A stretch of DNA of 64,000 nucleotides. It comes from Anaerolineae bacterium (lineage in GTDB: Bacteria > Chloroflexota > Anaerolineae > S140-20). The stretch covers positions 53,031 through 117,030 of the forward strand of contig JALUTT010000092.1 in the NCBI GenBank assembly GCA_027021705.1. Reading direction: 5' to 3'. Numbering within the stretch: the stretch's first letter is position 1; every line of letters starts with the position of its first letter. Shown here one piece after another: positions 18,824-41,215 of this stretch. The translations under genes were made by a program, and so were the position numbers. The notes under the pieces are model-generated. The model made no database searches. It saw only the letters and a program-made list of their open reading frames with translations, and was not told the origin of the DNA.

Positions 18824-18844
18824 CATCCGCCCAGGGAGGTCGTG

Positions 18845-19549
18845 ATGATCGTCGCCGAACAGAAACCACTGGAGGAGATCAAGGAACTCATCGCCGACGC
18901 CGAACGGGTGCTCATCGTCGGCTGCGGTACCTGCGTCACCGTCTGCTTCGCCGGCGGGGCCAAGGAGGCCGCCATCCTGGGCTCTACGCTCCGTATGGCT
19001 ACCCGGCTGGACGGCCACGGCAAGGCGATTGACGAGGTGACGGTGCAGCGCCAGTGTGAGTGGGAGTACATTGACCCCCTGGAGGCCCGCCTGGACGACT
19101 ATGACCTCATCCTCTCCCTGGGCTGCGGCATCGGCGTCCAGACGCTGGCCGAGCGCTTCCCCGACAAGCCGGTGGTGCCCGGCCTGAACACCGTCTTTAT
19201 GGGGCTGCCGGTAGAGCAGGGGGTGTGGGAGGAGCGCTGTCAGGCCTGCGGCGACTGCATCCTGGGCCTGACGGCCGGCATCTGCCCCATCGCCCGCTGC
19301 TCCAAGCAGTTGCTCAACGGCCCCTGTGGCGGCTCCCAGGATGGCCGCTGCGAGGTGGACGAGAGCATCCCCTGCGCCTGGCAGCTCATCTACGAGCGGG
19401 CTAAGGCCCTGGGCCGGCTGGACAAGCTGCTGGAGATCCAGCCGCCCAAGGACTGGTCCAAGAGCCGTGACGGGGGACCGCGCCGCGTCGTGCGCGAGGA
19501 CCTGCGGTTGACCCATCGGGTGGCAGAGGTGGCAGGAGGCGAGCGATGA
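18845..19549 (+). CDS. metV: Methylene-THF reductase accessory Fe-S subunit
   Basis: GCGTCVTVC, RQCE, CQACGDC, CPIARCSKQLLNGPCGG; ATG after GGGAGGT. Confidence 0.9.
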   Translation: MIVAEQKPLEEIKELIADAERVLIVGCGTCVTVCFAGGAKEAAILGSTLRMATRLDGHGKAIDEVTVQRQCEWEYIDPLEARLDDYDLILSLGCGIGVQTLAERFPDKPVVPGLNTVFMGLPVEQGVWEERCQACGDCILGLTAGICPIARCSKQLLNGPCGGSQDGRCEVDESIPCAWQLIYERAKALGRLDKLLEIQPPKDWSKSRDGGPRRVVREDLRLTHRVAEVAGGER

Positions 19550-20550
19550 TGGAGGACCGGAGCAACGGTTACAAGTCCGGGAGCAACCTGGAACGGCTCA
19601 TCCGGGCCGGCCACTTCGTCGTCACGGCGGAGTTGGGGCCGCCCAAAGGGTGGCAGCGGGAGGTGATCGAGCGCAAGGCCAAGCTGCTGCGCGGTGTGGT
19701 GGACGCCGTCAACATCACCGACAACCAGACGGCCATCGTGCGGATGTCCAGCATCGCCGCCGGCTGCATCCTGGTGGAGCTGGGGCTGGAGCCGATCATC
19801 CAGATGACCTGCCGGGATCGGAACCGGCTGGGCATCCAGAGCGACCTGCTGGGCGCAGCCGCCCTGGGCATCCGCAACGTCCTCTGCCTCACCGGGGATC
19901 ACCAGAGCTTCGGCAACCACCCCACGGCCAAGAACGTGCACGACCTCGACAGCATCCAGCTCGTCCAGATGGTCGCGCGGATGCGGGATGAGGGCATCTT
20001 CCAGTGCGGGGAGGCCATCAAGGGGGGCGGTCCGCCCTTCTTCATCGGTGCGGCGGCCAACCCCTTTGGCGATCCCTTCGAGTTCCGCCCCTACCGTCTG
20101 GCGAAGAAGGTCGCCGCTGGCGCCGACTTCATCCAGACCCAGTTGGTCTTCGACATCCCCCGCTTCAAGGAGTACATGAAGCGGGTGGTGGATATGGGCC
20201 TTCACGAGAAGGTCGCCATCCTGGCGGGGGTTGGCCCGCTCAAGAGCACAGGGATGGCCCGCTACATGCGGGACCGGGTGCCGGGGATGCGGGTGGCCGA
20301 CGAGTACGTGGAGCGGATGAAGGCGGCGGTGGCCGGCATCCCCAAGGAGGACAAGGCGGCCCGGCGTGAGGCCTGGCGGGCCGAGGGGATCAAGATCTGC
20401 GTGGAGCAGATCCAGCAGTTGCGCGAGATCGAAGGCGTCGCGGGGATTCACATCATGGCCATCGAGTGGGAAGAGGCCGTGCCGGTGATCGTCAAGGAAG
20501 CCGGCCTCTACCCGAGGCCAACCGTCGGTGAGGCGGTCCTTAAAACATAG
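19546..20550 (+). CDS. metF: Methylenetetrahydrofolate reductase
   Basis: TAELGPP, NITDNQ, CRDRNR, LTGD, AGADFIQTQ. Confidence 0.95.
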   Translation: MMEDRSNGYKSGSNLERLIRAGHFVVTAELGPPKGWQREVIERKAKLLRGVVDAVNITDNQTAIVRMSSIAAGCILVELGLEPIIQMTCRDRNRLGIQSDLLGAAALGIRNVLCLTGDHQSFGNHPTAKNVHDLDSIQLVQMVARMRDEGIFQCGEAIKGGGPPFFIGAAANPFGDPFEFRPYRLAKKVAAGADFIQTQLVFDIPRFKEYMKRVVDMGLHEKVAILAGVGPLKSTGMARYMRDRVPGMRVADEYVERMKAAVAGIPKEDKAARREAWRAEGIKICVEQIQQLREIEGVAGIHIMAIEWEEAVPVIVKEAGLYPRPTVGEAVLKT

Positions 20551-20588
20551 AGCTGTAGGACCAATACAGAGAGAACGAGGGCCTTTCT

Positions 20589-21023
20589 TCAGGCATCGGT
20601 TTCTGAGAAGGTGATGACACCCTGGGCGTTCATCGTAGCCCCTGTGTCTTTCAGCACTCGCTCAATGCGGTTCTCGGCGATCTCTGCTTCGATCTCCTCC
20701 TGGTGATCGAGATAGTAGCTGATGGCATCGTAAATCGCTGCCAGCTCGAGATGGGGATAGGCGGCCTCGATCTCCTCGGGGCTATCACCGGCCTTCCACA
20801 TCGCTGCGATAAGCCATACCGGGATGCTGGTGCCACGTAAGACAGGCCGTCCGCCTCGCACACCCTCACGCCGCACAATGTACGGGTGGTCTGTAGGATG
20901 AACTTGGGCGCGAATCAACTCTTCGGCCATTTCGTCAGGTGTGCGTCGGCTCGCACGAGCCCGCTGCACCAACAGTTCATACGTCTGCCGAGACACCTTG
21001 AGAGTCGCAACGGGTGTAACCAT
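20589..21023 (-). CDS. DUF433 antitoxin-like protein, orphan, antisense within the operon
   Basis: GGRPVLRGTSIPVW, AYPHL, AISYYLDHQEEIE; ATG 21023 after GGAGGTGG. Confidence 0.85.
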   Translation of the reverse strand: MVTPVATLKVSRQTYELLVQRARASRRTPDEMAEELIRAQVHPTDHPYIVRREGVRGGRPVLRGTSIPVWLIAAMWKAGDSPEEIEAAYPHLELAAIYDAISYYLDHQEEIEAEIAENRIERVLKDTGATMNAQGVITFSETDA

Positions 21024-21106
21024 CCCTGCCACCTCCGGGTTGACAACTGGCATCGCACGTTATCTTGAGTATAGCATAGAACCGCCGGTCCAACAACCTT
21101 GTAGCC

Positions 21107-21143
21107 TTGGTGATTACCCAACTCACCTATGGGTCATCACCGG
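21107..21143. mobile_element. Minimal family B MITE (37 bp) with 7-bp target duplication
   Basis: GGTGATTACCCA-N9-TGGGTCATCACC; TGTAGCC at 21100-21106 and 21144-21150. Confidence 0.7.
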
Positions 21144-21166
21144 TGTAGCCCCCAGTGAGGCTGAGC

Positions 21167-22573
21167 ATGGCCACAGCAACCTCTCCAACGACCGAAGTGC
21201 AAAGCCTGGCCGCGACCATCGAGCAGGCTACCGGCCAGAACGTCTACCTCTGCTACCAGTGCGTCAAGTGCAGCAGTGGCTGCCCCCTGGCCGAGCACAT
21301 GGACCTGATGCCCAACCAGGTGATGCGGGCCGTCCAGTTGGGCGATGCCGGCGTCCTGGAGTCGAAGACCATCTGGCTCTGCGCTTCCTGCCAGACCTGC
21401 ACCACCCGTTGTCCCCAAGGGCTGGACATCGCCGGGATCATGGACGCGCTGCGCATCGAGGCCCGCCGGCGCGGCATCCCCCCCGCCATCCCCGAAGTGG
21501 AGACCTTCAGCCGCCTCTTCCTCCAGGACATCCGGCTGATGGGCCGGGTCTACGAGGCCGGCCTGATGGCTGCCCTCAACCTGGCCACCAAGCAGCCGCT
21601 CAAGGATATGGCCATGGGGCTGGAGATGCTCAAGCGGGGCAAGCTCAAGCTGCTCCCCGCCTTCGTCCGCCCGCCCCGGCGGGTGAAACCCATCACCCCC
21701 GCCGACAACCAGATCGCCTACTTCCCCGGCTGCTCCCTGCACTCCACCGCCGCCGAGTACGACCAGACTACCCGGGCCGTGGCCAAGGCCCTGGGGCTGA
21801 AGCTGGTCGAGCCGCCCGGCTGGACCTGCTGCGGCTCCACGCCGGCCCACGGCACCGATCCCATCCTGGCCACCCGCCTGCCCATCCAGAACCTGGCCAT
21901 CGTCGAGCGGATGGGGCTGCCCGCGGTCACCGCGCCCTGCAGCGCCTGCTACTCCCGCTTCAGGACGGCCCTCTACGTGGTGGAACGGGAGCCGGAGATC
22001 GCCCAGGAGGTGAACCGACAGATCGGCTACACCTACCAGGACCGGGTGCGGGTGGAGCACCTCCTGGACACGCTGGTGGATCGGGTGGGGCTGGAGGCCA
22101 TTGAGAAGCGGGTGGAAAAGCCGCTCTGGGGGCTCAAGGTGGCCTGTTACTACGGCTGCCTGATCGTCCGCCCCCCTCAGGTGATGGGGAGGGCGCACCC
22201 GGAGTACCCGATGAAGATGGACCACCTGGTCCAAGCCCTGGGTGCGGAGCCGGTGGACTGGTCCTACAAGACCGATTGCTGCGGTGGGGCATTGGGGATC
22301 ACCCAGACCGCCCTGGCCCACGAGCTGACGGCCCGCATCCTGCAGAATGCCCGCGACTGTGGAGCCGACCTCATCGTTGCCATCTGTCCCCTCTGCCACG
22401 TCAACCTGGACGCCCGCCAGGCCCAGATCGGCCTGGACTTCTCGATGCCGGTCCTCTACTTCACCCAGTTGATGGCCCTGGCCTTCGGGTTGGGGGAGAA
22501 GCGGGCGGCGCTGGACAAGAATCTGGTGGACCCCCGGCCTGTCCTGGTCTACAAGGGGATCCTGGCGGCGTAG
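21167..22573 (+). CDS. Fused HdrC-HdrB heterodisulfide reductase subunit
   Basis: CYQCVKCSSGCP, CASCQTCTTRCP then YFPGC, WTCCG, YYGC, TDCCGG, CPLC. Confidence 0.92.
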   Translation: MATATSPTTEVQSLAATIEQATGQNVYLCYQCVKCSSGCPLAEHMDLMPNQVMRAVQLGDAGVLESKTIWLCASCQTCTTRCPQGLDIAGIMDALRIEARRRGIPPAIPEVETFSRLFLQDIRLMGRVYEAGLMAALNLATKQPLKDMAMGLEMLKRGKLKLLPAFVRPPRRVKPITPADNQIAYFPGCSLHSTAAEYDQTTRAVAKALGLKLVEPPGWTCCGSTPAHGTDPILATRLPIQNLAIVERMGLPAVTAPCSACYSRFRTALYVVEREPEIAQEVNRQIGYTYQDRVRVEHLLDTLVDRVGLEAIEKRVEKPLWGLKVACYYGCLIVRPPQVMGRAHPEYPMKMDHLVQALGAEPVDWSYKTDCCGGALGITQTALAHELTARILQNARDCGADLIVAICPLCHVNLDARQAQIGLDFSMPVLYFTQLMALAFGLGEKRAALDKNLVDPRPVLVYKGILAA

Positions 22574-26280: not shown

Positions 26281-26353
26281 CTCCTCGGGCAGGACTCGAA
26301 CCTGCAACCAACCGGTTAACAGCCGGCCGCTCTGCCGATTGAGCTACCGAGGA
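26281..26353 (-). tRNA. tRNA-Asn(GTT)
   Basis: TCCTCGG/CCGAGGA acceptor, loop CTGTTAA, GTTCGAG T-loop. Confidence 0.95.
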
Positions 26354-26543: not shown

Positions 26544-28124
26544 GTGGTGCGACGCGAGACGCAGAATCCATCTTACTGGCAACGCTTCCGCGTTACGGAC
26601 GACGACCTGGAACAGTTAACCAACTTCTTCCTGGAGGAAGAGCGTCCTGCCACCCTCGACGAACTGGCCCTGGCCTTGGTCCGGTATCGCTGTCAGCGGG
26701 AAGAAGCAGCCATCCGGCGCAAGCTGACCCAGGGTGCCCTCTTTCAGCCCAAAGACCGCTACGACGTGGGTGATACCCTCGTCTTCCCCGCCCTGGACTA
26801 TGCGGTGGGAACGGTGGTCGGCGTTCGGCCCGGCTTCAACCCCGAGTACGGGAGGTTCCGGGTCATTCAGGTCCAACTGGAGGGGGAGTCCCGCGTGCGG
26901 GAGTTCGCCTCCGAGTTTCCCGCCCCCCATCGTCTGAACCAGGAGAACGGCGAGGAGATTGAGCAAGACGCCCTGCTCACACCGGAGGACCTGTACGGCC
27001 TCTACGGCGACTACGTGCGCCAGGCCCTGGCCGACTACTTGGAGCAGGACGAGGGTTTTGTGCGCCTGGGGGACCAGTGGTTCCTCAAGAGCCTGCTGGT
27101 CGAGATCCACATTGGTCACCTGAACATCGCCGAGGCGGTCCTGGACATCAATGGAGGGGGCCCCCTGCCGCCCGAGGACCTGCTCAAGGAGCTGGACCTG
27201 CCGGAGAGCATCAAGGACGAGCTCAAGGTCTTCTCCCTCAACTATGCCCTGCAGCAGGATGAGCGCTTCGATGAGGTGGGCCCCACGGGAGAAGTCCTCT
27301 GGTTCCTGCGCCGCCTGGAGCCTCCTGAGGTGCTCTACCCTCCACGCCGGCTTCAGGTCACGTCCGTCTCCTACGACCCCAACATCCTGGATGCTGCCCT
27401 CATCCGCCTGATCCAGGAACTGGAGGATGAGCAGGAGACCTTGACCCTGCCCTTCCAGGAAGAGCGGGACGAGGTGACGATCACGCTGACCTTCCCCCAC
27501 CGTCGGGTGGGCTCCCTTCCCCTCACAGACCATCTGGCCCAGTTCTTTCCCACGGGGAAGACCCAGCGCATCCGTTTCCTCTTCCGGGATGCGCTGACCG
27601 GGAAGGAGTGGCCCGGCTGGGTGGTGCGCGAGGGGCGGTACGTCTTCGGGCTGGCCGACTGGTATGCAGAGCATGGCTTGCCTGTGGGCGCTTACATTGA
27701 CATCCGGCGGGCGGAGGAACCCGGCGTCGTGCTCATCAGCTTCCGCCAGCGCCGCGCCAAGCGGGAGTGGATTCGGGTGGCCGTTCCCGTAGAGGGACGC
27801 CTCACCTTTGAGATGCAGAAACGCACCCTGGCCTGTGAGTATGACGATCTGATGATCGTCGGTGTCCAGGACCTGACCGCCATAGACGAGATCTGGATGA
27901 AGGCCGAGGAGGCGCGGAAGCCTGTTGGGGAGATCCTCTGGGAGATTTTCCCAGAGCTGGCCAAGCTCACGCCTCAGGGAACCGTCCACGCCAAGACCCT
28001 CTACAGTGCGGTCAACGTGGTCCGTCGTCTCCCCCCGGGCCCCATCTTCGCCGAGCTGGTCGAGAACCCCCATTACATCCCCGTGGGAGACAACTACTGG
28101 CTCTTCGGTGAAGGGGAGGTGTGA
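26544..28124 (+). CDS. Hypothetical protein (526 aa)
   Basis: Long ORF with host-like codon usage, own promoter and RBS; no family recognised. Confidence 0.85.
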   Translation: MVRRETQNPSYWQRFRVTDDDLEQLTNFFLEEERPATLDELALALVRYRCQREEAAIRRKLTQGALFQPKDRYDVGDTLVFPALDYAVGTVVGVRPGFNPEYGRFRVIQVQLEGESRVREFASEFPAPHRLNQENGEEIEQDALLTPEDLYGLYGDYVRQALADYLEQDEGFVRLGDQWFLKSLLVEIHIGHLNIAEAVLDINGGGPLPPEDLLKELDLPESIKDELKVFSLNYALQQDERFDEVGPTGEVLWFLRRLEPPEVLYPPRRLQVTSVSYDPNILDAALIRLIQELEDEQETLTLPFQEERDEVTITLTFPHRRVGSLPLTDHLAQFFPTGKTQRIRFLFRDALTGKEWPGWVVREGRYVFGLADWYAEHGLPVGAYIDIRRAEEPGVVLISFRQRRAKREWIRVAVPVEGRLTFEMQKRTLACEYDDLMIVGVQDLTAIDEIWMKAEEARKPVGEILWEIFPELAKLTPQGTVHAKTLYSAVNVVRRLPPGPIFAELVENPHYIPVGDNYWLFGEGEV

Positions 28125-28161
28125 CGGTGGCGGGGGCTGCGGGCGCTCGGGTCGGATGGGA

Positions 28162-28206
28162 GCGAGTCAGCGAGTCGGCGAGTCGGCGAGTCAGCGAGTC
28201 AGCGAG
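28162..28206. repeat. Octamer tandem tract (GCGAGTCR)n
   Basis: About 5.5 copies. Confidence 0.9.
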
Positions 28207-28214
28207 GGTAGAGG

Positions 28215-28664
28215 ATGACCAGGCCGGTCGCTTCAATCCAGGTTCTTCGCGCATTTAAACCCACCCTCGACACCCCTTTCCACATAGACTACGGCTGGTG
28301 GGAGCGGTCCGGACTGAACCTCCGGGTCTACCTTCAGAGCCATCTCTGTCCGGAACACCGCAAGCTCTTCGCCGACCTCCAGGAAGTGGAGGAGATTGAC
28401 TGGGTGGACGAAGAGACGGCTGAGGTGACCCGGGTGGATGGTCTCCGGCACGTGCTGCGCACCCATTGCAGCAAGCAGCCGGGCTATATCACTCCCCATA
28501 CCACGCTGGTGGATGCGATCTTTCGGGTCTTCCTGGCCAACGACAACAAGCCCCTGACCCCGGTTGAATTGGGACAGCGGATTGGACGGGACCCGATGAT
28601 GATCCTCCGAGCCCTCTCCCGAGGGCGGGTGTACAAGGGGTTGCGCCCTGTTGTGGATGCATAA
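28215..28664 (+). CDS. Hypothetical protein with possible C-terminal HTH
   Basis: HLCPEH and THC motifs; PLTPVELGQRIGRDPMMILRAL. Confidence 0.75.
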   Translation: MTRPVASIQVLRAFKPTLDTPFHIDYGWWERSGLNLRVYLQSHLCPEHRKLFADLQEVEEIDWVDEETAEVTRVDGLRHVLRTHCSKQPGYITPHTTLVDAIFRVFLANDNKPLTPVELGQRIGRDPMMILRALSRGRVYKGLRPVVDA

Positions 28665-28758
28665 GGACCCTCGTAGGAGACGGGATGTGGAACGGTCCAG
28701 CGCCTCCCCCATCGTCTTCGTTGCGGGGCTCTGGCCGCTTCGGGCGGGTTGACCGGCG

Positions 28759-29247
28759 ATGAAGCTCCTGGCCGATGCTATGCTGGGCCGGCTGGCCCGC
28801 TGGCTCCGCATCCTGGGGTACGACACCACCTACCTGACCGACACCGACGACTACACGGTGATGCGGGTGGCGCGAGCGGAAGGGCGGCTGCTGTTGACCC
28901 GGGACCGGGCGCTGGCCGCCCGGATCGGCCTGGGTGCCCTGCTCATCACCAGCGAGAAGCTGGAAGACCAGCTCCGACAGGTCCTCTCGACGTTGGGTCC
29001 CTCCTCCGCCAAACCCTTCACCCGCTGCCCCATCTGCAACACGCCGTTGGAACCCGTGGATCGCGAGACGGCCCGGGCGTGGGTTCCCCTCTACGTCTAT
29101 CAGACCCAGTCCCAGTTCTACCACTGCCCCGATTGCAACCGCTTCTACTGGCCGGGCACCCACTGGCAACAGATGCGGGCCCTGTTGAGCCGCGTGGACC
29201 GCACCGTGCGGGATGGCACGTCCGTTTCCGAACAGAAAGGAGGTTGA
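28759..29247 (+). CDS. Mut7-C (PIN + zinc ribbon) RNase
   Basis: ADAMLGRLARWLRILGYD, LLTRD, RCPICN, CPDCNRFYWPGTH. Confidence 0.9.
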   Translation: MKLLADAMLGRLARWLRILGYDTTYLTDTDDYTVMRVARAEGRLLLTRDRALAARIGLGALLITSEKLEDQLRQVLSTLGPSSAKPFTRCPICNTPLEPVDRETARAWVPLYVYQTQSQFYHCPDCNRFYWPGTHWQQMRALLSRVDRTVRDGTSVSEQKGG

Positions 29248-29251
29248 CGCG

Positions 29252-29605
29252 CTGAAGGTCGAACCCATCGAGTTGGCCCGACGCCTGGTGGACGCCATCG
29301 TGGACAAGAAGGGGGAGGATGTCCTGCTGCTGGACATCCGGGAGCAGGCGGTCTTCACCGACTACTTCATCATCTGCAGCGGCGAGAGCGAACGGCAGCT
29401 TCGGGCCATCCTGGAGGGCGTTCGGGAGACGGCCAAGAAGCAGTTCCACACGCTGCCCCTCCAGGTGGAAGGCGAGGCGATCAGCGGATGGGTGCTGGTG
29501 GACTACGGTGACGTGATCGTCCACATCTTCGCCCCGGAGTTGCGCACCTACTACGACCTGGAAGGGCTCTGGCGCGAGGGCCGGGTCGTCGTGCGAATCC
29601 AGTAG
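29252..29605 (+). CDS. rsfS: Ribosome silencing factor (start probably CTG 29252)
   Basis: DKKGED, DYFIICSG, WVLVDYGDVIVHIF, YYDLEGLW. Confidence 0.92.
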   Translation: MKVEPIELARRLVDAIVDKKGEDVLLLDIREQAVFTDYFIICSGESERQLRAILEGVRETAKKQFHTLPLQVEGEAISGWVLVDYGDVIVHIFAPELRTYYDLEGLWREGRVVVRIQ

Positions 29606-29621
29606 GCAATGCCTCCTCGGC

Positions 29622-29997
29622 CTATTGGATGGGACACGGATAAACGCGGGTCCGACGGATAGGCACGGATGTTTTCAGATATTTTTTAGAAAATCTGTGG
29701 CTATCCGTAGCATCCGTGTCATCCGTGGTCTATTGGATGGGACACGGATAAACACGGATTGGACGGATGGGCACGGATGTTTCTGAGAGATCTGTGGCTA
29801 TCCGTAGCACCTGTGTCATCCGTGGTCTATCGTCTATTGGATGGGACACGGATAAACGCGGGTCCGACGGATAGGCACGGATGTTTTCAGATATTTTTTA
29901 GAAAATCTGTGGCTATCCGTAGCATCCGTGTCATCCGTGGTCTATCGTCTATTAGATGGGGCACGGATAAACACGGATCCGACGGATAGGCACGGAC
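29622..29997. repeat. Tandem array of 3.5 hairpin units (104-115 bp) built from ACGGAT/ATCCGT motifs
   Basis: Units start 29622, 29730, 29834, 29949; units 1 and 3 appear identical. Confidence 0.9.
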
Positions 29998-30160
29998 TTG
30001 GGCCCGCACAGCCAGCCGGGCCTTCATCCGGTAGTTGAAGCGTGCCGTCCTCCCCAGGTCCTCCCGGTAGAGGATGGGTGAACGTCCCCTCAGTTCGTAC
30101 TGCTTGAGCCGCGTCGGCTGGTTCGCCGATTGGGCGATCAGCCCCTCCAGGTCCACGATG
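29995..30160 (-). pseudogene. Possible gene remnant resembling an alpha-2-macroglobulin C-terminus
   Basis: DLEGLIAQ...KQYELRGR...LYREDL...FNYRMKAR...RAQ; recognised by eye only. Confidence 0.3.
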
Positions 30161-30238
30161 ATCCACAGTCCACAGTCCTCAGTCCTCAGTCCGCCGCTAC
30201 GCCGCCATCCGCTATGCCGCTATGCCGCTATCCGCTAT
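30160..30238. repeat. GTCCTCA / GCCGCTA tandem mosaic
   Basis: gtccacagtcctcagtcctcagtccgccgctacgcc... Confidence 0.85.
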
Positions 30239-31167
30239 ACCCCCAGCCCCCGAGCCCGCCGTTCCTGGGGCAGCAGGCTGTGGTAGAGGAAGGTGTGGAG
30301 GGGAGTAGCGACGCCCACCTCCCGTCCCAGCCGCACGACGGCCCCGTTCTGGGCCTCCAGTTCCGAGGGCCGCCCTTCGAGGATGTCCCGCTGCATCGAG
30401 GCCGTCGCGCCGGGGGGCAGGCTGTCCACGAAGGCCATCGCCCGGTCTACGGCGTCGCCGGCCAGAGCGATGCCCCGGGCCTGGGCGACGGCGACGATCT
30501 CCTCCATCGCCTGGAGCAGCATCTGGCGGGTCTGGGGAAGGGAGCGCAGGACGCCGACGGGCGCCCGGGTCACGGCCCCCACGCCGCCCAGGGAGGCGAT
30601 GAAGAGGAACTTCTCCCACATCGCCGCCTGGATGTCGGGGGGCACCTCGGCCTTCACACCGGCGCGGAGGAAGGCTTGGCGCAGCCGCTCCGCCCGCTCG
30701 CTGGGGCGGTTGTCCAGCTCGCCGAAGGCGATGTAGGGCTCGGCCCCGGCGTGGCGGATCCGCCCCGGCCCGACGCGGGCGCTGAAGATCTTGCAGAGGC
30801 CACCCAGGACGTGCTCGGGGTCCAGGACGGCGGCCAGTTGGTCCGGCGCTTCCACGCCGTTCTGGAGGGGAACGACGAAGCTCTCCGGCCCCACCAGGGG
30901 GCGCATAGCCCGGGCCGCCTCGGGCACCTGCCAGGCCTTCACGCCGACCAGGACGACGTCCACAGGGCCGACCTGGGCGGGGTCGTCGGTGGCCTGGACC
31001 GGGTACAGGTGGAAGTCGCCCAGGATGCTCTCCACCTGCAGGCCCTGCCGGCGCATAGCCTGCAGGTGTTCGCCTCGGGCGATGAAGATCACCTCTTCGC
31101 CGGCCTGGGCCAGCCGTCCTCCGAAGTAGCCACCCACAGCACCGGCACCGAAGACGGCAATGCGCAT
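30235..31167 (-). CDS. panE: 2-dehydropantoate 2-reductase
   Basis: MRIAVFGAGAVGG, VKA, LQNG, WEKF, SMQRD...SELE; ATG 31167 after GGAGG. Confidence 0.92.
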   Translation of the reverse strand: MRIAVFGAGAVGGYFGGRLAQAGEEVIFIARGEHLQAMRRQGLQVESILGDFHLYPVQATDDPAQVGPVDVVLVGVKAWQVPEAARAMRPLVGPESFVVPLQNGVEAPDQLAAVLDPEHVLGGLCKIFSARVGPGRIRHAGAEPYIAFGELDNRPSERAERLRQAFLRAGVKAEVPPDIQAAMWEKFLFIASLGGVGAVTRAPVGVLRSLPQTRQMLLQAMEEIVAVAQARGIALAGDAVDRAMAFVDSLPPGATASMQRDILEGRPSELEAQNGAVVRLGREVGVATPLHTFLYHSLLPQERRARGLGV

Positions 31168-31182: not shown

Positions 31183-31745
31183 TAGCGGGCTAGCGGCGTA
31201 GCGGTTAGCGGCGTAGCGGTTAGCGGCATAGCGACCTAGCGGCTGGCGGCGCAGCGGCGGACCAAGGGATGAGGCACCGAGGACCGAGGCACTGAGGGCC
31301 GAGCGGCGTAGCGACCTAGCGGCTGGCGGCGTAGCGGCGGGCCGAGGGCTGAGGCACCGAGGACCGAGGACTGAGGACTGTACCTCCCATCCGCTCAATC
31401 CGTTCTCAAATCCGCTGACAGCTATCCGTTCCAGGGCGACCTAACGGCAAGCAGCTTAGCGGTGGACTGAGGACTGCATAGCCGACCGCCGACGGCCGAC
31501 GGCCGACCGCCGCCGGGGGAGGCACCGAGGGCTGAGGCACTGAGGGCCGAGCGGCGTAGCGACCTAGCGGCTGGCGGCGTAGCGGCGGGCCGAGGGCTGA
31601 GGCACCGAGGACCGAGGACTGAGGACTGTACCTCCCATCCGCTCAATCCGTTCTCAAATCCGCTGACAGCTATCCGTTCCAGGGCGACCTAACGGCAAGC
31701 AGCTTAGCGGCAGACTGCGGACTGCGGACTGCGGACTAAGGACTA
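31183..31745. repeat. TGAGGAC/TAGCGGC mosaic containing a 192-bp direct duplication
   Basis: 31271-31462 nearly identical to 31519-31710 (period 248). Confidence 0.9.
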
Positions 31746-34700
31746 AACACCCTTTCCACCGCCTGCAGCCGCTCCCAGGTGGCAGGGAGGCAGCCCAGCC
31801 GGGCCAGGAGGGGAACGAAGGCTCGGATGTAGCGCCAGACCTCTTCGCGGCCCCGCGCCCGCGCGGCGCGGAAGGCGGTGATGAGCCATCCGGCAGCCTG
31901 CTCCTCCCCCGGCGCGGCCACCTGGGCGAGGGCCTGGGCGACGGCGGTCAGGACCTGAGCGCGGTGCCGGTCGCTCTCAATCCTCTCTGCGGCGGCGAGG
32001 GCGTGGGTCAGCCCTTGGCGGTCTCTCACCTGGGCCAGGGCTTGGGCGACGGCGGTCAGGGCCTGGGCGTGCCAATAGATGTCCTCAATCCTCTCGGCGG
32101 CGGCGAGGACGCGGGAGAGACCCTCCCGATCGCCTACCTGGGCCATCGCCTGGGCGACGGTGGTCAGGACTTGGGCGCGGCGCTCGGCGTCCTCAATCCT
32201 CTCGGCGGCGGCGAGGGCGCGGGCCAGGGCTTGGCGAGCCTGGTCTTTATCCCCCACCTGGGCCAAGGCCTGGGCGATGGCGACCAGGGTCTCTTGGTCC
32301 AACGCCTGGGTGACGGCAGTTAGGACCTGGGCGCGGTATCGGTTGCTCTCAATCCTCTCGGCGGCGGCGAGGGCGCGGTCGAACGCTCCCCCCTGGGCCA
32401 AGGCCTGGGCGACGGCGGTCAGGGCCTCGGCGCGCCAATAGTTGTCCTCAATCCTCTCGGCGGCGGCGAGGGCGCGGTCGAACGCTCCCCCCTGGGCCAA
32501 GGCCTGGGCGACGGCGGTCAGGGCCTGGGCGCGGCCGCTGCTCCATCGAATCCTCTCGGTGGTGACGAGGGCGCGGGCCAGGGCTTGGCGAGCCTGGTCT
32601 TTATCCCCCACCTGGGCCAAGGCCTGGGCGACGGCGGTCAGGGCCTGGGCGCGGCGCCAATCCTTCTCAATCCTCTCGGCGGCGGCGAGAGCGCGGTCTA
32701 GGGCCTGTCGAGCCTGTTCCTGCTCCCCCACCTGGGTCATTGCCTGGGCGACGGCAGTCAGGGCCTGGGCGCCGTATCGGTTGCTCTCAATCCTCTTGGC
32801 GGCGGCGAGGGCGCGGTCCAGGGCCTGTCGAGCCCGTTCCCGCGCTCCCCCCTGGGCCAGGGCCTGGGCGACGGCGATCAGGGCCTGGACGCGGCGCCAA
32901 TCGTCCTCAATCCTCTTGGCGGCGGCGAGGGCGCGGTCGAACTCTTCCCCCTGGGCTAAGGCCTGAGCGACGGCGGTCAGGGCCTGAGCGCGGTCATCGG
33001 TGTCCCTGATCCTCTCGGCGGCGGCGAGGGCGCGGTCCAGGGCCTCCTTCATAACCTGGTCTGTCCGCCTCCCCGTCCGCTCCCAGGCCGCCAGCCCGAT
33101 CCGCCGGTAGGCCTCCGCCTGCCGCTTGGGGTCGGTAATCAGCTCCGCGTACCGCAGCGCCTGCTCCCCCTCCCCCAGCCGCGCCATCACCTCCATCGCC
33201 CCCACCGGCACCTGGGTCGCCAGCGTGCCCAGCGTTCCGTAGAGCAGGCTCCAGCCCACCACCGCTGGCACCCCCGCCACCCCCCGCCCCTCGGCCACCT
33301 CCAGCGCCCGCTCCACATCCCGGGCGTAGGCCCGCCGGCTCGGGTCCCGCGCCCGCTGGGCCGCGTACCACCCCCGGTCCTCGATCAGCCGCCCCAACGC
33401 CTCGAACTCCCCCGCCTTCGCCATATGCCAGCTCAGGTAGGCGTGCCCGTAGCCGTCGTCGGGCAGCGTGGACCACCGGCCCCCCCGGGTGCGGGCGCAG
33501 TAGCGGGCCACCAGTTGGGCGTGGGCCTCTCGCAGCGTCAGCCCCAGCCCCTCCGGTGGGGGGGCCACCAGCAGGCGGCGGGCCAGGCCGTGCAGCAGGT
33601 TGTGTAGGCGGTAGGTGGGCGTGCCGTCGGACAGGGGGGCACCGGGCAACAGCAGCGCCTTGTGATACAGGTAGCGCAGGCCGTCACGCGCCTCTCGCTC
33701 CTCCTTCCACCACACCGTCGCCATCATCGTCGGGGTCAGGCTTATGTCCTCCGGCAGCACCCCCAGCCTGGCGAACTGCTCCCGTCGCGCTTCCGGCAGC
33801 TGGCGCAGGCTCAAGTTGAAAGAAGCTAGTAGGCTGAGCCGCTTGCGGATCGTTTCGTCGGTCTCCCCCTCGGCTTCCGGCAACTCCAGCGCCTCCGGCC
33901 GGGCGATCTCCGCCTGCAGGTCGGCCAGCAAGTCCGCCCAGGGCACCCCGTCGTTCACCTGGGCGGCGGCCAACTCCAGGGCCAGGGGCAGGTAGCCCAC
34001 CGCCTCGGCCAGGGCCAGCGCCTGCTCCCGTTCCCCCTCGGCCAGGGAGCGGTCCAGCTTCTTGATCAGGAGCGCCAGCGCCTGCTCCGGCGTCATCACC
34101 TCTAGGGCGTAGAGCGTGGCCCCCACCGCATTGGCGATGACCGCCTCGCGGGTGGTGATGAGGACCCGGCAGCGGGGGCCGCCCACCAGGAAGGGGCGGA
34201 CGTGGGCCGGCTCCCAGGCGTCGTCCACCACCAGCAGGCAGGCCCGGTCGTGCAGCAGGCTGCGCAGGTGGGCCGAGGCCGACTCGATGAGGGGAAGGCG
34301 GAAGCTGCGGTCCCCCAGGGCGTAGATCCAGCCCAGCAGCAGCTCGGCCAGGTCCGGCTGCTGACCCAGCGTGGCCCAGAGGACGCCGTCGGGGAAGCGG
34401 GCCTGCACGTCGGGGTCGTGGGCCAGGGCGGCGGCCAAGGTGGACTTGCCGATGCCCTCCAGGCCGTGGATGGCGCTGACGACGAGGACGCCGGAGGAGG
34501 GCCGGCCGTCGTCCAGGAGCCGGGCCTTGAGCGCCTCGCTCACCTCGGGCCGGGGAACAAAGTGGGCCGGCAACGGCGGGGCCTGGGTGAGGTAGGTGGG
34601 GCCGGGCTCCACCACCGGTGGGGGTGGAGCGGTGGGACGGCGCTCGAGGAGGGCCGCGATCTGGACGATCTCGTCATCGAGGGGAACGTCCAGCCTCTCG

Positions 34701-34876
34701 CAGAGCGAGCGGTACTCCTCCAGTTTCCCCCCGATGAGCGTCCGCAGCCTTTTAATCTCCCGACGGGCGCGTCGCCTCTCCGTCGGCCTGTCGGAATCGC
34801 GCACGATCTCTTCGTGCTCCCTGATCAGGGCATACATCTCTCGGATGTCACGTTCGAGATCGTCCTTGGGTGCCAT
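31736..34876 (-). CDS. NB-ARC STAND NTPase with N-terminal helical domain and C-terminal TPR-like repeats (NLR-like)
   Basis: GLEGIGKS, LLVVDDAW, LITTR, GYLPLAL, RLHNLL, APAF-like helical segment, about 10 repeats. Confidence 0.92.
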   Translation of the reverse strand: MAPKDDLERDIREMYALIREHEEIVRDSDRPTERRRARREIKRLRTLIGGKLEEYRSLCERLDVPLDDEIVQIAALLERRPTAPPPPVVEPGPTYLTQAPPLPAHFVPRPEVSEALKARLLDDGRPSSGVLVVSAIHGLEGIGKSTLAAALAHDPDVQARFPDGVLWATLGQQPDLAELLLGWIYALGDRSFRLPLIESASAHLRSLLHDRACLLVVDDAWEPAHVRPFLVGGPRCRVLITTREAVIANAVGATLYALEVMTPEQALALLIKKLDRSLAEGEREQALALAEAVGYLPLALELAAAQVNDGVPWADLLADLQAEIARPEALELPEAEGETDETIRKRLSLLASFNLSLRQLPEARREQFARLGVLPEDISLTPTMMATVWWKEEREARDGLRYLYHKALLLPGAPLSDGTPTYRLHNLLHGLARRLLVAPPPEGLGLTLREAHAQLVARYCARTRGGRWSTLPDDGYGHAYLSWHMAKAGEFEALGRLIEDRGWYAAQRARDPSRRAYARDVERALEVAEGRGVAGVPAVVGWSLLYGTLGTLATQVPVGAMEVMARLGEGEQALRYAELITDPKRQAEAYRRIGLAAWERTGRRTDQVMKEALDRALAAAERIRDTDDRAQALTAVAQALAQGEEFDRALAAAKRIEDDWRRVQALIAVAQALAQGGARERARQALDRALAAAKRIESNRYGAQALTAVAQAMTQVGEQEQARQALDRALAAAERIEKDWRRAQALTAVAQALAQVGDKDQARQALARALVTTERIRWSSGRAQALTAVAQALAQGGAFDRALAAAERIEDNYWRAEALTAVAQALAQGGAFDRALAAAERIESNRYRAQVLTAVTQALDQETLVAIAQALAQVGDKDQARQALARALAAAERIEDAERRAQVLTTVAQAMAQVGDREGLSRVLAAAERIEDIYWHAQALTAVAQALAQVRDRQGLTHALAAAERIESDRHRAQVLTAVAQALAQVAAPGEEQAAGWLITAFRAARARGREEVWRYIRAFVPLLARLGCLPATWERLQAVERVFSP

Positions 34877-34889: not shown

Positions 34890-34976
34890 AGGTTCCTCGG
34901 TCCTCGGTCCTCGGCCCTCATCCCTCGGCCCTCAGCCCTCAGCCCGCCGCCACGCCGCTACGCCGCTAGCCGCTAC
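34890..34976. repeat. GTCCTCG/GCCCTCA/GCCGCTA mosaic in NLR leader
   Basis: Opposite orientation to tract 31183-31745. Confidence 0.85.
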
Positions 34977-35023: not shown

Positions 35024-35150
35024 GATAGCTGTCAACGGATTAGGGGGAGCGGATTGAACGGATTCGGAATCCCCTAGGTGAAGCGCCGGTCCCTCCCGTC
35101 GTCTCCCATCCGCTCAATCCGTTCCTGAATCCGCTGACAGCCATCCGCTC
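35024..35150. repeat. ACGGAT-type inverted-repeat element; right arm also at 31384-31430 and 31632-31678
   Basis: GATAGCTGTCAACGGAT...ATCCGCTGACAGCCATC. Confidence 0.75.
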
Positions 35151-35171
35151 CAAATCTGGGTCTTGCTTGAG

Positions 35172-35912
35172 GGCAGCACCGGCCTGGAAGCGCCGGTGCT
35201 GGGGGGTCGGCGGGGCAGCACCGGCCTGAAGCGCCGGTGCTGGGGGCGGCGAGGCGGTCCGCCGTCGGCGGTCTGCATCGTGTCTTTCCCCATCCGTGGT
35301 GCTCTCCTCCCAAGTATACCACGCCTTCCCACGACATCCAACACCCTCCCGCAGGCCACGCCGTGGAGATGGGCAGCACCGGCCTGAAGCGCCGGTGCTG
35401 GGGGAAAATGAACCCAGCCCCGCCGGTTCGACGGCCCCCCAGCCCCGCCTGTTTGACGGCGGGGCGGTGGCGGTGGCAGCACCGGCCTGAAGCGCCAGTG
35501 CTGGGGGAAATGAACCCAGCCCCGCCTGTTTGACGGCGGGGCGGCTTCCCGCATCCCCCAGCCCCACCTGTTTGACGGCGGGGCGATGGCGGCGGGGCGG
35601 TGCCTGGAAGCGCCGGTGCTGGGGGAAGTGAACCCAGCCCCGCCTGTTCGACGGCGGGGCGGTGCCTGGAAGCGCCGGTGCTGGGGGAAAATGAACCCAG
35701 CCCCGCCTGTTCGACGGCGGGGCGGCTTCCCGCATCCCCCAGCCCCGCCTGTTCGACGGCGGGGCGGCTTCCCGCATCCCCCAGCCCCGCCTGTTTGACG
35801 GCGGGGCGGCTTCCCGCATCCCCCAGCCCCGCCTGTTTGACGGCCCCCCAGCCCCGCCGGTTCACGGCGGGGCGGTGGGCGGTGCCACGGCGGGGCGGTG
35901 GCGGCGGGGCGG
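35172..35912. repeat. Mosaic array of two GC-rich hairpins (REP/BIME-like)
   Basis: About 10 GCCCCGCC-TGTTYGAC-GGCGGGGC and about 6 CAGCACCGGC-CTGAAGC-GCCGGTGCTG copies, some partial. Confidence 0.9.
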
Positions 35913-35914
35913 CT

Positions 35915-37405
35915 TCATCGGCGCACCGCCTCGACGAAGGCCCGCAGCTTGGCGGGGTCCTTGAGGCCCTTGGACCGCTCGACGCCGCTGGAGACGTCCA
36001 CCCCCCAGGGGCGGACCTGGGCGATGGCCTCCCCGACGTTCTCCGGCCTGAGGCCGCCGGCCAGGAGCAGCCGAAAGCGCCGGGCCAGCTCCCGCGCGAT
36101 CCCCCAGTCGGCCCGAAGGCCGGTGCCCCCGGGCCGGGTAGGATGGTAGGCATCCACCAGGAGCTGGGGGAGGGTCGCGGCGTCGGGGAGGGCCGCTCGG
36201 TAGGCCTCGGCCATCACCTCCGCCTCCTCGGGCGAGCGGGGGCGCAGGGCCTTGAAGGCGCGGGGGTGCAGCGCCCCCACCAAGGCCGGCGGCTCCCGAC
36301 CGTGCAACTGGGCCAGGTCCAGGCCGGCGGCGTCCAGGACCGCCCGCACCTCCTCCGCCGGCGCGTCCACGAAGACGCCGACGAACCGGGGGGCGTCGGC
36401 CCCGAACTCGGCCCGCAGCGCGGCGGTGATGGCGGCCACCCGCTCCGGCCGGACGAAGCGGGGGCTCCCGGGGTAGAAGACGAAGCCCAGGAAGTCGGCC
36501 CCGGCCTCCGCCGCCCGACGGGCGTCCTCCAAGGTCGTGAGGCCGCAGACCTTGATGCGTGGCCCGCGCTGCCCGCTGCTCCGAGGCCGGAGCAGGGGGT
36601 GGGAAGGGGGATGGGGGATGGGCGGGGTGGTGAACTCCCGCGCTTTCCGGCCGGGGTCGGCGGCCCGGACCAGCGCCTCCCCGACGAGGATGGCGTCGGC
36701 GCCGGCGGCGGCCACCTCCTCGGCGTCGGAACGCCCCCGGATGCCGCTCTCGGCGACCAGGAGGACCCCCCGGGAAACTTGAGGGCGCAGCCGGGCCGTC
36801 GTCCCCAGGTCCACCCGGAAGGTGCGCAGGTCCCGGTTGTTGACGCCGATGAGGCGCGGCCCGATCCGCAGCGCCCGCGCCAGCTCCGCCTCGTCGTGGA
36901 CCTCGACCAGCGCGGCCATGCCCAGCCGCCGGGTCAGCCGGTAGAGGGCCTGGAGCGTGGCGTCGTCCAGGGCGGCGACGATGAGCAGGAGGGCGTCGGC
37001 GCCGGCCGCCCGCGCCTCGTAGACCTGGTAGGGGCCCAGGATGAAGTCCTTGCGCAGCAGGGGCAGGCGGACCCGGCGGCGCACGGCCCGCAGGTGCTCC
37101 AGGCTGCCCCCGAAGAAGGGGCCGTCGGTGAGGATGCTGATGGCGGCCGCGCCGTTGGCCTCATACCGGCGGGCCAGGTCCACCGGGTCGAAGTCGGCCC
37201 GGAGCAGCCCCTTGCTGGGCGAGGCCCGCTTGACCTCGGCGATGAGGGCCAGGTTGGGGCCGCTCAGGGCGGCGACGAAGTCCCGGGGAGGCGGGGCCTG
37301 GGCCGCTTCGGCCCGCAGCCGCGCCAAGGGCACCTCCCGCCGGCGCCGGGCCACCTCCTCCCGCTTCCGATCCAGAATCTCCCGGAGGATGGTTGGGGAG
37401 GGCAT
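35915..37405 (-). CDS. trpCF: Fused indole-3-glycerol phosphate synthase / phosphoribosylanthranilate isomerase
   Basis: IAEVKRASPSKG, LRKDF, GVNNRDL; then IKVCG, QLHG, LAGGL, GVDVSSGVE. Confidence 0.93.
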   Translation of the reverse strand: MPSPTILREILDRKREEVARRRREVPLARLRAEAAQAPPPRDFVAALSGPNLALIAEVKRASPSKGLLRADFDPVDLARRYEANGAAAISILTDGPFFGGSLEHLRAVRRRVRLPLLRKDFILGPYQVYEARAAGADALLLIVAALDDATLQALYRLTRRLGMAALVEVHDEAELARALRIGPRLIGVNNRDLRTFRVDLGTTARLRPQVSRGVLLVAESGIRGRSDAEEVAAAGADAILVGEALVRAADPGRKAREFTTPPIPHPPSHPLLRPRSSGQRGPRIKVCGLTTLEDARRAAEAGADFLGFVFYPGSPRFVRPERVAAITAALRAEFGADAPRFVGVFVDAPAEEVRAVLDAAGLDLAQLHGREPPALVGALHPRAFKALRPRSPEEAEVMAEAYRAALPDAATLPQLLVDAYHPTRPGGTGLRADWGIARELARRFRLLLAGGLRPENVGEAIAQVRPWGVDVSSGVERSKGLKDPAKLRAFVEAVRR

Positions 37406-39124: not shown

Positions 39125-39445
39125 TTAGTCCTTGGTCCTCAGTCCTTAGTCCTCAGTCCGCCGCTAAGCCGCTAGCCGCTAGGTCGCTAGCCGCTACGCC
39201 GCTACGCCGCTCGGTCGGCGGTTGGCTACGCAGTCCTCGGTCCTCAGCCCTCGGTGCCTCCCTCTTGGTCAGGTGGTCAAGTGGTCGAGTGGTCCTCGGT
39301 CCTCGGTCCTCAGCCCTTGGTCCACAGTCCGCCGCTACGCCGCTCGGTCGGCGGTTGGCTACGCAGTCCTCGGTCCTCAGTCCTCAGTCCTTGCCCCTTG
39401 CCCCCTGCCCCTTGCCCCTTGCCCCCTGCCCCTTGCCCCTTCCTC
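39125..39445. repeat. Heptamer mosaic (GTCCTCR, GCCGCTA, CCCCTTG) overlapping trpE 3' end
   Basis: Direct reading; 39156-39247 matches 41005-41096 at 88/92. Confidence 0.9.
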
Positions 39446-40964: not shown

Positions 40965-41215
40965 GCTCAGTCCTCGGTCCTCGGTCCTCAGTCCTCAGTC
41001 CTCGGTCCGCCGCTAAGCCGCCAGCCGCTAGGTCGCCAGCCGCTACGCCGCTACGCCGCTCGGCCGGCGGTCGGCTACGCAGTCCTCGGTCCTCAGTCCT
41101 CAGTCCTCAGTCCGCCGCTACGCCGCTATGCCGCTAGCCGCTACGCCGCTATGCCGCTTGATCGGCGGTCGGCTACGCAGTCCTCGGTCCTCGGTCCTCG
41201 GTCCTCATCCCTCAT
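40965..41215. repeat. Heptamer/octamer mosaic in trp leader
   Basis: (GTCCTCR)n and (GCCGCTA[C])n blocks. Confidence 0.9.

Follow-up and report, generated by a model that had tools for sequence, protein, structure and literature searches.

The Avs sensors of bacteria use TPR-like domains of a non-repetitive kind to recognize conserved phage proteins, and are not known to rely on near-identical cassettes. The fungal NOD-like receptors (NLRs) HET-E, HET-D, and HET-R (NWD) are tripartite ATPases of the multidomain signal-transducing class (STAND), in which the repeats have an internal identity of around 80% or higher and differ at a few hypervariable positions. The gain, loss, and shuffling of these repeats is proposed as the source of new specificities in the available text of the Dyrka 2020 preprint and of PMC13449251 (2026, Genome Biol Evol), the latter of which records NLRs of the highly conserved repeat type from every domain of life. 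The available text of the preprint, which cites Hu 2017 and Marold 2015 (“42PR”), also attributes 80–90% internal repeat identity to bacterial WD and TPR NLRs, and suggests that they may diversify like the fungal ones. The present analysis deals with a gene of this general type in a stretch of 64,000 nucleotides from an Anaerolineae bacterium (GCA_027021705.1, contig JALUTT010000092.1, positions 53,031 to 117,030), referred to here as the window. The product is probably a cytosolic, NLR-like NB-ARC STAND switch of an uncultured member of the Chloroflexota, in which a ridge of loops would bind non-self molecules, with specificity arising through the gain, loss, and reshuffling of repeat units.

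The gene occupies positions 31736–34876 of the window on the reverse strand, as do all of the parts described below, and is a single long open reading frame (ORF) of 1046 codons and a stop, with the motif GAGGGG 6–11 nucleotides (nt) upstream of its ATG. A protein identical to the window product (P0001) is present in both NCBI and JGI, on a contig of 117,030 bp. From the N- to the C-terminus, the protein consists of an 80-residue helical module, a Pro-rich linker, an Apaf-1-like series of domains (nucleotide-binding domain, NBD; helical domain 1, HD1; winged-helix domain, WHD; and helical domain 2, HD2), ten alpha-hairpin repeats, and a helical cap.

The array of ten helix-turn-helix repeats (residues 614–992; 31901–33037) is supported by motif anchoring, AlphaFold2 (AF2) models, and phmmer. 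When the units are delimited by anchoring on the motif [AT][AT][EK]RI, their lengths are, in order, 33, 40, 40, 40, 33, 33, 52, 36, 36, and 36 residues, and each contains a five-residue loop in a scaffold rich in Ala, Leu, Val, and Ile. The ten loops listed in a first-pass annotation of the window were read again exactly as given. The first half of the array is formed by unit 1 (32939–33037; loop RDTDD, hypervariable codons at 32993–33004), unit 2 (32819–32938; EDDWR, 32894–32905), unit 3 (32699–32818; ESNRY, 32774–32785), unit 4 (32579–32698; EKDWR, 32654–32665), and unit 5 (32480–32578; RWSSG, 32534–32545). The second half comprises unit 6 (32381–32479; EDNYW, 32435–32446), which is missing from the allele P0002 described below, unit 7 (32225–32380; ESNRY, 32336–32347), unit 8 (32117–32224; EDAER, 32180–32191), unit 9 (32009–32116; EDIYW, 32072–32083), and unit 10 (31901–32008; ESDRH, 31964–31975). 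The two ESNRY loops of units 3 and 7 have identical codons (GAG AGC AAC CGA TAC), in agreement with the earlier observation that the same DNA occurs in both a 40-residue and a 33-residue unit, in the register used there.

The variation within the array is sharply localized. The first residue of the loop is E in eight of the ten units and R in the other two, so that the claim of a hypervariable five-residue loop holds for the four positions that follow it, but not for the first. These four positions (columns 12–15 of a 29-column core alignment) account for 151 of the 356 pairwise amino acid mismatches (42%), a concentration matched by only 4 of 100,000 random sets of four columns. Mean pairwise nucleotide diversity is 0.56 in the 12 loop nucleotides, which are near saturation, and 0.115 in the other 75 nucleotides of the scaffold, where the amino acid identity between units is 0.78. 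The description of the scaffold as conserved “almost base for base” is, at this mean difference, a mild overstatement, even if stretches of 80, 66, and 45 nt in the array are exactly identical. The 40 hypervariable residues comprise ten D, six R, five W, five S, four Y, three N, and seven singletons, and the picture of internally conserved repeats with a localized patch in which D, R, W, S, and Y are frequent is borne out.

A per-codon comparison, which the first-pass annotation had suggested as a check, gives the same impression. In a Nei-Gojobori-type count, the five loop codons have a proportion of nonsynonymous differences (pN) of 0.52, against a proportion of synonymous differences (pS) of 0.18 and a pN of 0.10 in the scaffold, which represents a descriptive 2.9-fold excess of loop pN over scaffold pS. 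These values bear on a neutral explanation, in which the array is a helical scaffold or adaptor with unconstrained turns, its scaffold being homogenized by gene conversion, and both the loops and any change in unit number are by-products. The turn residues of alpha-solenoids do tolerate substitution, and the pN/pS comparison is a crude one, both of which favor this explanation. Under neutrality, the ratio should nevertheless not exceed about 1, and the composition of the loops, with W in 5 and Y in 4 of the 40 positions, together with 10 D and 6 R, is not drift-like. On this evidence, and on that of the exchange tracts and the relatives given below, neutral variation is an improbable account of the array.

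The variable positions also occupy a constant place in the predicted structure. The C-terminal AF2 model (residues 560–1046; alignment of 13 sequences, predicted local distance difference test, pLDDT, 83.5) consists entirely of helical hairpins, in which DSSP places a turn, R-I-[E/R]-x, in all ten units, followed by three residues that open helix B. The variable positions are, given this placement, the last residue of the turn and the first three of helix B, in register throughout the array. Equivalent positions stack along one edge of a regular solenoid, and the variable loops may therefore form an exposed ridge for the binding of a ligand, as modelled. The mapping of the loops proposed earlier holds, then, for their common position at the turn and helix start in 10 of 10 units, a matter of secondary structure only, while their exposure is inferred. 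Searches with the C-terminal model in Foldseek recover only generic alpha-solenoids (designed repeats, TON_1535, OGT TPR, LGN, and PPR), with TM-scores of up to 0.43. Pfam matches TPR_12 over the C-terminal third of the protein (E 5.4e-9; 36.6 bits, cut-off 30.1), whereas the periods of the units (33, 36, 40, and 52 residues) differ from the 34 residues of the canonical TPR, and the best sequence relative is TON_1535 rather than any TPR protein.

A second allele provides an example of a change in the number of units. The protein P0002 (1013 residues), encoded on a 23-kb ENA contig, is identical to P0001 over all of its 1013 residues, and the sole difference between the two is a clean indel of 33 residues, corresponding to unit 6 (EDNYW), the start of which can be placed anywhere from residue 785 to residue 811. 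Unit 6 is bracketed by an exact direct repeat of 80 nt (copies at 32447–32526 and 32348–32427, offset by 99 nt; overall span 32348–32526). An exact repeat of 66 nt, with an offset of 354 nt (32566–32631 and 32212–32277; span 32212–32631), places the same scaffold and linker DNA beside EKDWR and RWSSG in one copy, and beside ESNRY and EDAER in the other. Unit 7, in turn, contains a partial duplicate of helix B (12 residues; 32291–32326), which extends it to 52 residues and is identical to the next 36 nt at 24 of 36 positions. The pLDDT drops to 55–64 at this duplicate, which is likely, from its sequence, to be the scar of an out-of-register recombination event.

The indel of a unit, the exact repeats, and the helix B duplicate are the footprints expected, at the sequence level, of unequal or out-of-register homologous exchange, and the similarity of the scaffold, with identical stretches as long as 80 nt, makes unequal homologous recombination feasible. 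The tracts of gene conversion, with identical flanks of 66–80 nt, end short of the loops, which argues against the neutral explanation. The claim that the array is diversified by recombination is supported by the indel with its 80-nt repeat, the 66-nt block, and the duplicate in unit 7, although the length polymorphism could also be due to assembly collapse. Paralogous donors of repeats, which the first-pass annotation had envisaged, were not found in the 64-kb window: a 27-nt scaffold pattern has eight matches (none expected from 100 shuffles), all of which lie inside the array. No further near-identical alleles were recovered, either by a single-protein scan of genome contigs or by a protein search with residues 600–1046, which yielded 15 fragments with 30–68% identity. 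A diversity-generating retroelement was considered as a source of the loops, and was dropped because there is no reverse transcriptase among the 79 window ORFs scanned, and the differences between the loops span all four bases.

The array is carried by an NB-ARC (AP-ATPase clade) STAND NTPase with an NLR-like architecture, in agreement with the sensor type named in the first-pass annotation. The NB-ARC module (residues 99–447; 33536–34582) comprises the NBD, HD1, and WHD, and is identified by Pfam, phmmer, Foldseek, and its motifs. The Pfam NB-ARC family (PF00931) matches residues 114–305 (E 3.8e-19; 69.4 bits, cut-off 23.5), and the region includes a Walker A motif (GLEGIGKS, 138–145), a Walker B motif (LLVVDDAW, 214–221), TTR (241–243), GYLPLAL (294–300), and H425. 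Residues G138, G143, K144, D218, D219, T241, R243, P297, and H425 are each identical in all 121 of the aligned relatives; for S145, and likewise for T242, the number is 119 of the 121. Residue 430 is G in the window protein, and D in 110 of the 121 relatives.

In the full-length AF2 model (alignment of 60 sequences, mean pLDDT 79.2), an alpha/beta NTPase is followed by helical domains, and then by regular helical hairpins up to the C-terminus. The NTPase region of this model is matched by Foldseek to Apaf-1 (3shf and 3sfz; E about 1e-13), with a root-mean-square deviation of 4.5–4.7 Å over 429–430 columns, the value of 4.5 Å over 429 columns referring to full-length murine Apaf-1, followed by CED-4, Dark, and the plant resistosome NLRs. 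The NB-ARC module is followed by an HD2-like helical domain (residues 448–506; 33359–33535), which aligns to Apaf-1 and has a Pfam APAF1_C match (E 1.3e-4, 22.3 bits) just below the cut-off of 22.8, and by a degenerate helical region (residues 507–613; 33038–33358), with helices in both AF2 models. The pLDDT is 48–66 at residues 500–560 of the full-length model, and higher in the C-terminal model. The C-terminal cap (residues 993–1046; 31739–31900) is also helical in both models.

No Pfam match to NACHT was found at E<=1, and the protein is not, on this evidence, of the bNACHT type. In phmmer searches of the PDB, the best match is AfsR (1.6e-27), with Apaf-1 (1.4e-17) and the plant NRC NLRs also being recovered, and the best NCBIfam match is likewise the AfsR model NF053617 (E 1.1e-34). 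These two matches, together with a position adjoining the trp operon and panE, might suggest an AfsR- or MalT-like STAND regulator, which would respond to a small molecule or protein of the cell itself and whose output would be gene regulation. The AfsR model, however, covers the NTPase only and, at 119.7 bits, falls far short of its cut-off of 1430, NCBIfam and Pfam give neither a full-length AfsR/SARP match nor an N-terminal SARP DNA-binding domain, and Pfam recovers no SARP, BTAD, or helix-turn-helix DNA-binding domain. In addition, the N-terminal module is shared with proteins containing caspase, TIR, and CHAT domains, and not with regulators, and a conserved endogenous ligand should not go together with hypervariable contact positions. 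A regulator of this kind is thus highly improbable.

The combination of an NB-ARC core with variable repeats is not restricted to the window gene. A protein search recovered 1205 matches at E<=1e-3 among 8000 scored candidates, and an alignment-based scan of genome contigs recovered 447 relatives (79 loci kept), all of them distant, with a best-segment identity of up to 58%. A single-protein scan of the genome contigs, a collection that does not include the source species, recovered no close relatives. The relatives belong mostly to the Nostocales, Moorena, and other cyanobacteria, with some Anaerolineae and a few members of other phyla, and they share the NB-ARC core and the type of repeat, with the consensus AL.AAR.I.DE..RA.AL..LA..LP. 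Their N-terminal domains include EAD4, EAD1, DUF4062, Trypsin_2, caspase, CHAT, TIR_2, and Mrr_cat, and the arrays in the family reach 29 units. In three of the loci, the winged-helix region joins the repeat or cap sequence directly, and these sequences look like large internal deletions or misassemblies.

A repeat profile built from the window gene alone was too specific (two proteins with at least six full units), and it was rebuilt iteratively. The resulting profile of 31 columns recovers 772 full units, spread over 85 of the 121 proteins. Where six or more units are present (56 proteins), the within-protein entropy peaks at positions 14, 16, 17, and 20 (1.41–1.72 bits), with values of up to 0.81 bits at all other positions, the identity of the scaffold ranges from 0.59 to 0.94, and Y and S dominate the pooled residues at positions 16 and 17. 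Among the 18 genes with at least eight ungapped units, the pN of the variable positions exceeds the pS of the scaffold in 16, again as a descriptive comparison. The 17 computable ratios range from 0.79 to 7.5; the window gene has a value of 2.5, and the 16 others for which the scaffold pS is above 0 lie between 0.8 and 7.5. The recurrence of these entropy and pN/pS patterns across the relatives indicates that the type of repeat and its variable positions are a trait of the family, and not a peculiarity of one gene. It also counts against neutral variation, given that the same positions vary in 56 of the 56 relatives analyzed, and that Y and S prevail at two of them, whereas the ratios below 1 in two of the 18 genes count in its favor.

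The particular flavor of the scaffold in the window gene, RAQALTAVAQALAQ, is found among the 121 proteins only in P0002, and is lineage-specific, at least in the sequences compared. It is also present in metagenome fragments with 38–68% identity, which share the C-terminal cap, while the cyanobacterial relatives terminate in a cognate ...RWW cap.

The N-terminal module (residues 1–80; 34637–34876) is adaptor-like, with three helices in the AF2 model (residues 3–27, 31–62, and 68–78; block pLDDT 72–91), and is separated from the NTPase by the Pro-rich linker (residues 81–98; 34583–34636), which is modelled as disordered at residues 80–95 (pLDDT <50). Residues 1–80 have no match in Pfam or NCBIfam, and no usable match in the ESM Atlas, but a phmmer scan of 1.84 billion representatives recovered 267 clusters at E<=1e-3. 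In the matched proteins, which are 59–1113 residues long, the module is almost always N-terminal. The domains that accompany it were identified with Pfam (E<=1e-4) in the 132 proteins of at least 130 residues from the 149 matches listed, P0002 being excluded. The most common partner is EAD7 (20 of the 132), followed by Peptidase_C14, the caspase family (11), FGE-sulfatase (6), and then TIR_2, CHAT, NB-ARC, and nSTAND1 or nSTAND2 (5 each), bDLD1 (4), NACHT (3), and EAD9 (2). Trypsin_2, TRADD-N, EAD2, EAD8, PNP_UDP_1, and DUF7019 occur once each, and 59 of the 132 proteins have no match to any Pfam family.

Judging by this distribution, the module behaves like an effector-associated adaptor domain, that is, one which is small, non-enzymatic, terminal, and common to NTPases and effectors. 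Effector-associated domains (EADs) are proposed, in the available text of Kaur et al. 2020 (PMC7159879), to couple core NTPases to effectors through homotypic interaction. The comparison of residues 1–80 with small alignments of EAD7, EAD1, and bDLD1 in hhalign gave probabilities of up to 2.3%, and neither Pfam nor hhalign places the module within a described EAD, with EAD5, EAD6, and EAD10 lying outside the comparison. A predicted complex of two copies of the module scored 0.01 against a mark of 0.42, a result that weighs neither for nor against binding.

Taken together, these features suggest how the receptor might work. The variable residues, aligned on one edge of the solenoid, would form a ridge for ligand binding, and the docking of a non-self protein on this ridge, in all likelihood one of a phage or other invader, would release the receptor from autoinhibition. 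The exchange of ADP for ATP would then allow the NB-ARC modules to oligomerize, and the N-terminal modules clustered in this way would recruit or activate separately encoded effectors that bear the same module; the caspase, TIR, and CHAT partners of the module occur in other organisms. Specificity would evolve as units are gained, lost, and reshuffled, and selection would maintain the differences among the loops. By analogy, the protein most likely acts as a sensor of the immune type, examples of which have been noted in bacteria before, and the sole basis for suggesting an immune or anti-phage function is the presence of effector domains on the relatives and on the proteins that share the N-terminal module. 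The first-pass annotation was right on the architecture and on the evolutionary pattern, while the immune function and the binding surface that it put forward are plausible, but unproven.

A more ambitious version of this scheme is also possible, although doubtful, in which the array would be a cassette-shuffled, antibody-like surface, with ten paratope-like patches of W, Y, S, D, and R on an invariant alpha-hairpin scaffold, reassorted by intragenic homologous recombination at a rate sufficient for strains to differ even where they are identical in other respects, and linked by an undescribed adaptor to caspase, TIR, and CHAT executioners. If this were true, these more than 1200 proteins, found predominantly in Nostocales and Anaerolineae, would represent in bacteria what the NLRs with conserved repeats are in fungi, and would provide rapidly evolving specific immunity or kin recognition with no need for a diversity-generating retroelement.

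A number of observations weigh against the interpretation of the gene as a diversifying sensor of non-self molecules. The MHD-type motif tunes autoinhibition in plant NLRs, and here the invariant H425 is followed by N426 (33599–33601), where 117 of the 121 relatives have D. PADLOC matched no Avs model, and gave only a weak match to STAND_TPR over the repeats (PDLC01173, E 1.1e-12), while no second copy of the N-terminal module is present in the 64-kb window. The pN/pS comparison across repeats is descriptive, given that the pairs are non-independent, no significance test is attached, and gene conversion confounds it, and in 2 of the 18 genes the pN of the variable positions does not exceed the pS of the scaffold. 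The length polymorphism rests on one assembly pair, and the loss of a unit in P0002 may represent assembly collapse, since the 80-nt exact repeat lets a short-read assembler skip the unit; this sole polymorphism could thus be an artefact, a point that favors the neutral explanation. The contigs of eleven relatives end inside their repeat arrays, and repeat counts from short-read assemblies of this family are unreliable because the assemblies break in the arrays. Lastly, the gene is surrounded by housekeeping functions (panE, the trp operon, and rsfS), with no genomic linkage to defense, and no defense-island neighbors were seen in the 64-kb window.

The chromosomal setting, by contrast, is in keeping with a different role for the same machine, as a sensor for kin recognition, allorecognition, or developmental cell death, which would detect polymorphic proteins of conspecifics in a filamentous bacterium, in place of phage proteins, in the manner of HET-E, HET-D, and HET-R in fungi. 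The neighborhood is a housekeeping one, with no defense island, and the lineages in which the family is concentrated (Nostocales, Moorena, and Anaerolineae) are filamentous or multicellular. The window itself is placed in the Chloroflexota, near the Anaerolineae, by its EF-G, which is 99–100% identical to proteins of metagenome-assembled genomes (MAGs) that are unnamed or labelled “Chloroflexi bacterium,” and 75–79% identical to those of the nearest named Chloroflexota and Anaerolineae MAGs. Conserved repeats with hypervariable sites are, moreover, the pattern of the fungal incompatibility NLRs in the available text of the Dyrka 2020 preprint and of PMC13449251. Against this, no polymorphic partner locus was identified. 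To our knowledge, the bacterial STAND proteins tested so far (Avs and bNACHT) are anti-phage. A role of this kind is unlikely, and the sensing of non-self molecules of invaders by an NLR-like switch remains the preferred interpretation.

The gene lies between panE (30235–31167, reverse strand), with rsfS (29213–29605) beyond it, and trpCF, trpD, trpG, and trpE on the other side, and the farther neighbors include a carbon monoxide dehydrogenase/acetyl-CoA synthase (CODH/ACS) Wood-Ljungdahl cluster, rpoB, and fusA. The intergenic regions of the window contain arrays of 7–8-nt units (of the GCCGCTA type, the CCTCAGT type, and others), often inverted on either side of genes, at 30172–30238, 31183–31735, 34895–34976, 39160–39211, 40966–41207, 18776–18823, 28161–28206, and 63794–63853. 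The arrays that flank the NLR-like gene are not read as the ends of a mobile element, because similar ones are present in intergenic regions elsewhere in the window. A tandem duplication of 248 bp is found at 31271–31725. An element of 50 nt (90–100% identical), with all copies in direct orientation, flanks the gene on either side, at 31384–31433, 31632–31681, and 35103–35152, and could be either a dispersed element resembling repetitive extragenic palindromes (REP-like) or the trace of a cassette insertion. Between the gene and trpCF, approximately 750 bp of nested GC-rich repeats (35160–35910), with units of 42, 62, and 118 nt and palindromic cores, are overlapped by long ORFs (for example, 35074–36153), which have no Pfam match and are probably not genes. 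Three to four copies of a 61–115-nt repeat follow rsfS at 29578–30001. An Rfam scan of the region at 25–42 kb recovered a single tRNA, and the intergenic repeats matched no RNA family.

This tRNA gene (26281–26353, reverse strand) is followed by approximately 2.7 kb of lower GC content (0.62; 26544–29200), in which the long ORFs of both strands have no Pfam match at E<=0.01, and which may represent a small island or a novel gene. The pairing of AAA_21 with DUF4276 is often listed as a candidate defense module, and one such gene pair, with an AbiEii-like AAA_21 ATPase truncated at the window edge, is found at 2–1277 on the forward strand. The Wood-Ljungdahl-type cluster extends over 2678–22573, and includes CODH (Prismane), the ACS beta subunit, CdhD, RACo, a corrinoid/pterin-binding protein, a CooC-like ATPase, a large HdrA-like flavoprotein, methylenetetrahydrofolate reductase (MTHFR), and an HdrD-like CCG protein. 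An archaeal-type S-adenosylmethionine synthetase is encoded at 54182–55366 on the reverse strand.

If the proposed role is correct, the fungal strategy, that is, a conserved repeat scaffold with a few hypervariable contact residues, and recombination generating the specificities, would be present in a bacterium of the Chloroflexota and in hundreds of cyanobacterial relatives. Given that the concept of conserved repeats has been published for bacterial TPR and WD40 repeats, the gene is a well-documented further example rather than a new principle. The family nevertheless offers a regular system, with units of approximately 33 residues and four variable residues each, for the study of how bacterial NLR-like proteins acquire new specificities, and it includes two parts that domain libraries leave un-named: the TON_1535-like repeat, and the adaptor-like N-terminal module common to the caspase, TIR, and CHAT proteins. 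In the literature searched, neither this repeat with its variable positions nor the N-terminal module was found to be described, although subscription papers or supplements may hold one; the available text of Kaur et al. 2020 likewise contained no description of the repeat, and no paper on TON_1535 was found in the same literature.

Among the known systems, the closest in pattern are the NLRs with highly internally conserved (HIC) repeats, as understood in Dyrka 2014 and PMC13449251, with which the window gene shares two features: high repeat identity, and variation that is concentrated at a few positions and shows a descriptive excess of nonsynonymous change. The comparison with HET-E made in the first-pass annotation is apt as an analogy. 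The fungal NLRs, unlike the window protein, combine NACHT with WD40, ANK, or TPR repeats, whereas here NB-ARC is combined with alpha-hairpins of 33–40 residues, and the NTPase superfamily alone is common to both. The fungal cases also have population genetics and functional proof, compared with a single pair of alleles here. Nearer at hand are the bacterial NLRs with NB-ARC and TPR or with NACHT and WD40 repeats, which have comparable internal repeat identity and occur mostly in Actinobacteria and Cyanobacteria, according to the accessible text of the surveys. These published surveys of bacterial conserved repeats are based, in the text available, on SMART and Pfam annotations of TPR, WD40, ANK, and LRR, of which the window repeat receives TPR_12 only; PMC13449251, in its available text, used the SMART annotations of these four classes and explicitly excluded other classes of alpha-solenoid.

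The individual parts of the protein have counterparts in other systems. The order NBD-HD1-WHD-HD2, the Walker A and B motifs, TTR, GLPL, and the MHD-type His are shared with Apaf-1, CED-4, and the plant NLRs, from which the window protein differs in its alpha-solenoid sensor, in place of WD40 or LRR, and in its un-named N-terminus of 80 residues, in place of CARD, CC, or TIR. It resembles Avs1-5 and bNACHT as a bacterial STAND protein with a C-terminal repeat sensor and an N-terminal effector or adaptor, and its relatives carry comparable effectors (Mrr-type nuclease, TIR, and proteases), although its NTPase is NB-ARC rather than NACHT, and PADLOC does not assign it to Avs. The sole solved structure with sequence similarity to the repeats is TON_1535 of Thermococcus onnurineus (3zpj; phmmer E 2.5e-8), which has the same register, AL..A..I.D....A.AL followed by a linker, and ranks third in Foldseek with the C-terminal model, but is a stand-alone protein with divergent repeats, unknown function, and no NTPase, and with Foldseek TM-scores of 0.32 and 0.41. 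The N-terminal module, finally, resembles the EADs of Kaur, Burroughs, Iyer, and Aravind (2020) in being small, non-enzymatic, all-alpha, and terminal, and in occurring both on STAND NTPases and on stand-alone proteins with caspase, TIR, CHAT, or FGE-sulfatase domains. It is also found together with EAD7, EAD2, EAD8, EAD9, and bDLD1, and differs from the EADs in having no Pfam EAD match and no second copy in an adjacent gene.

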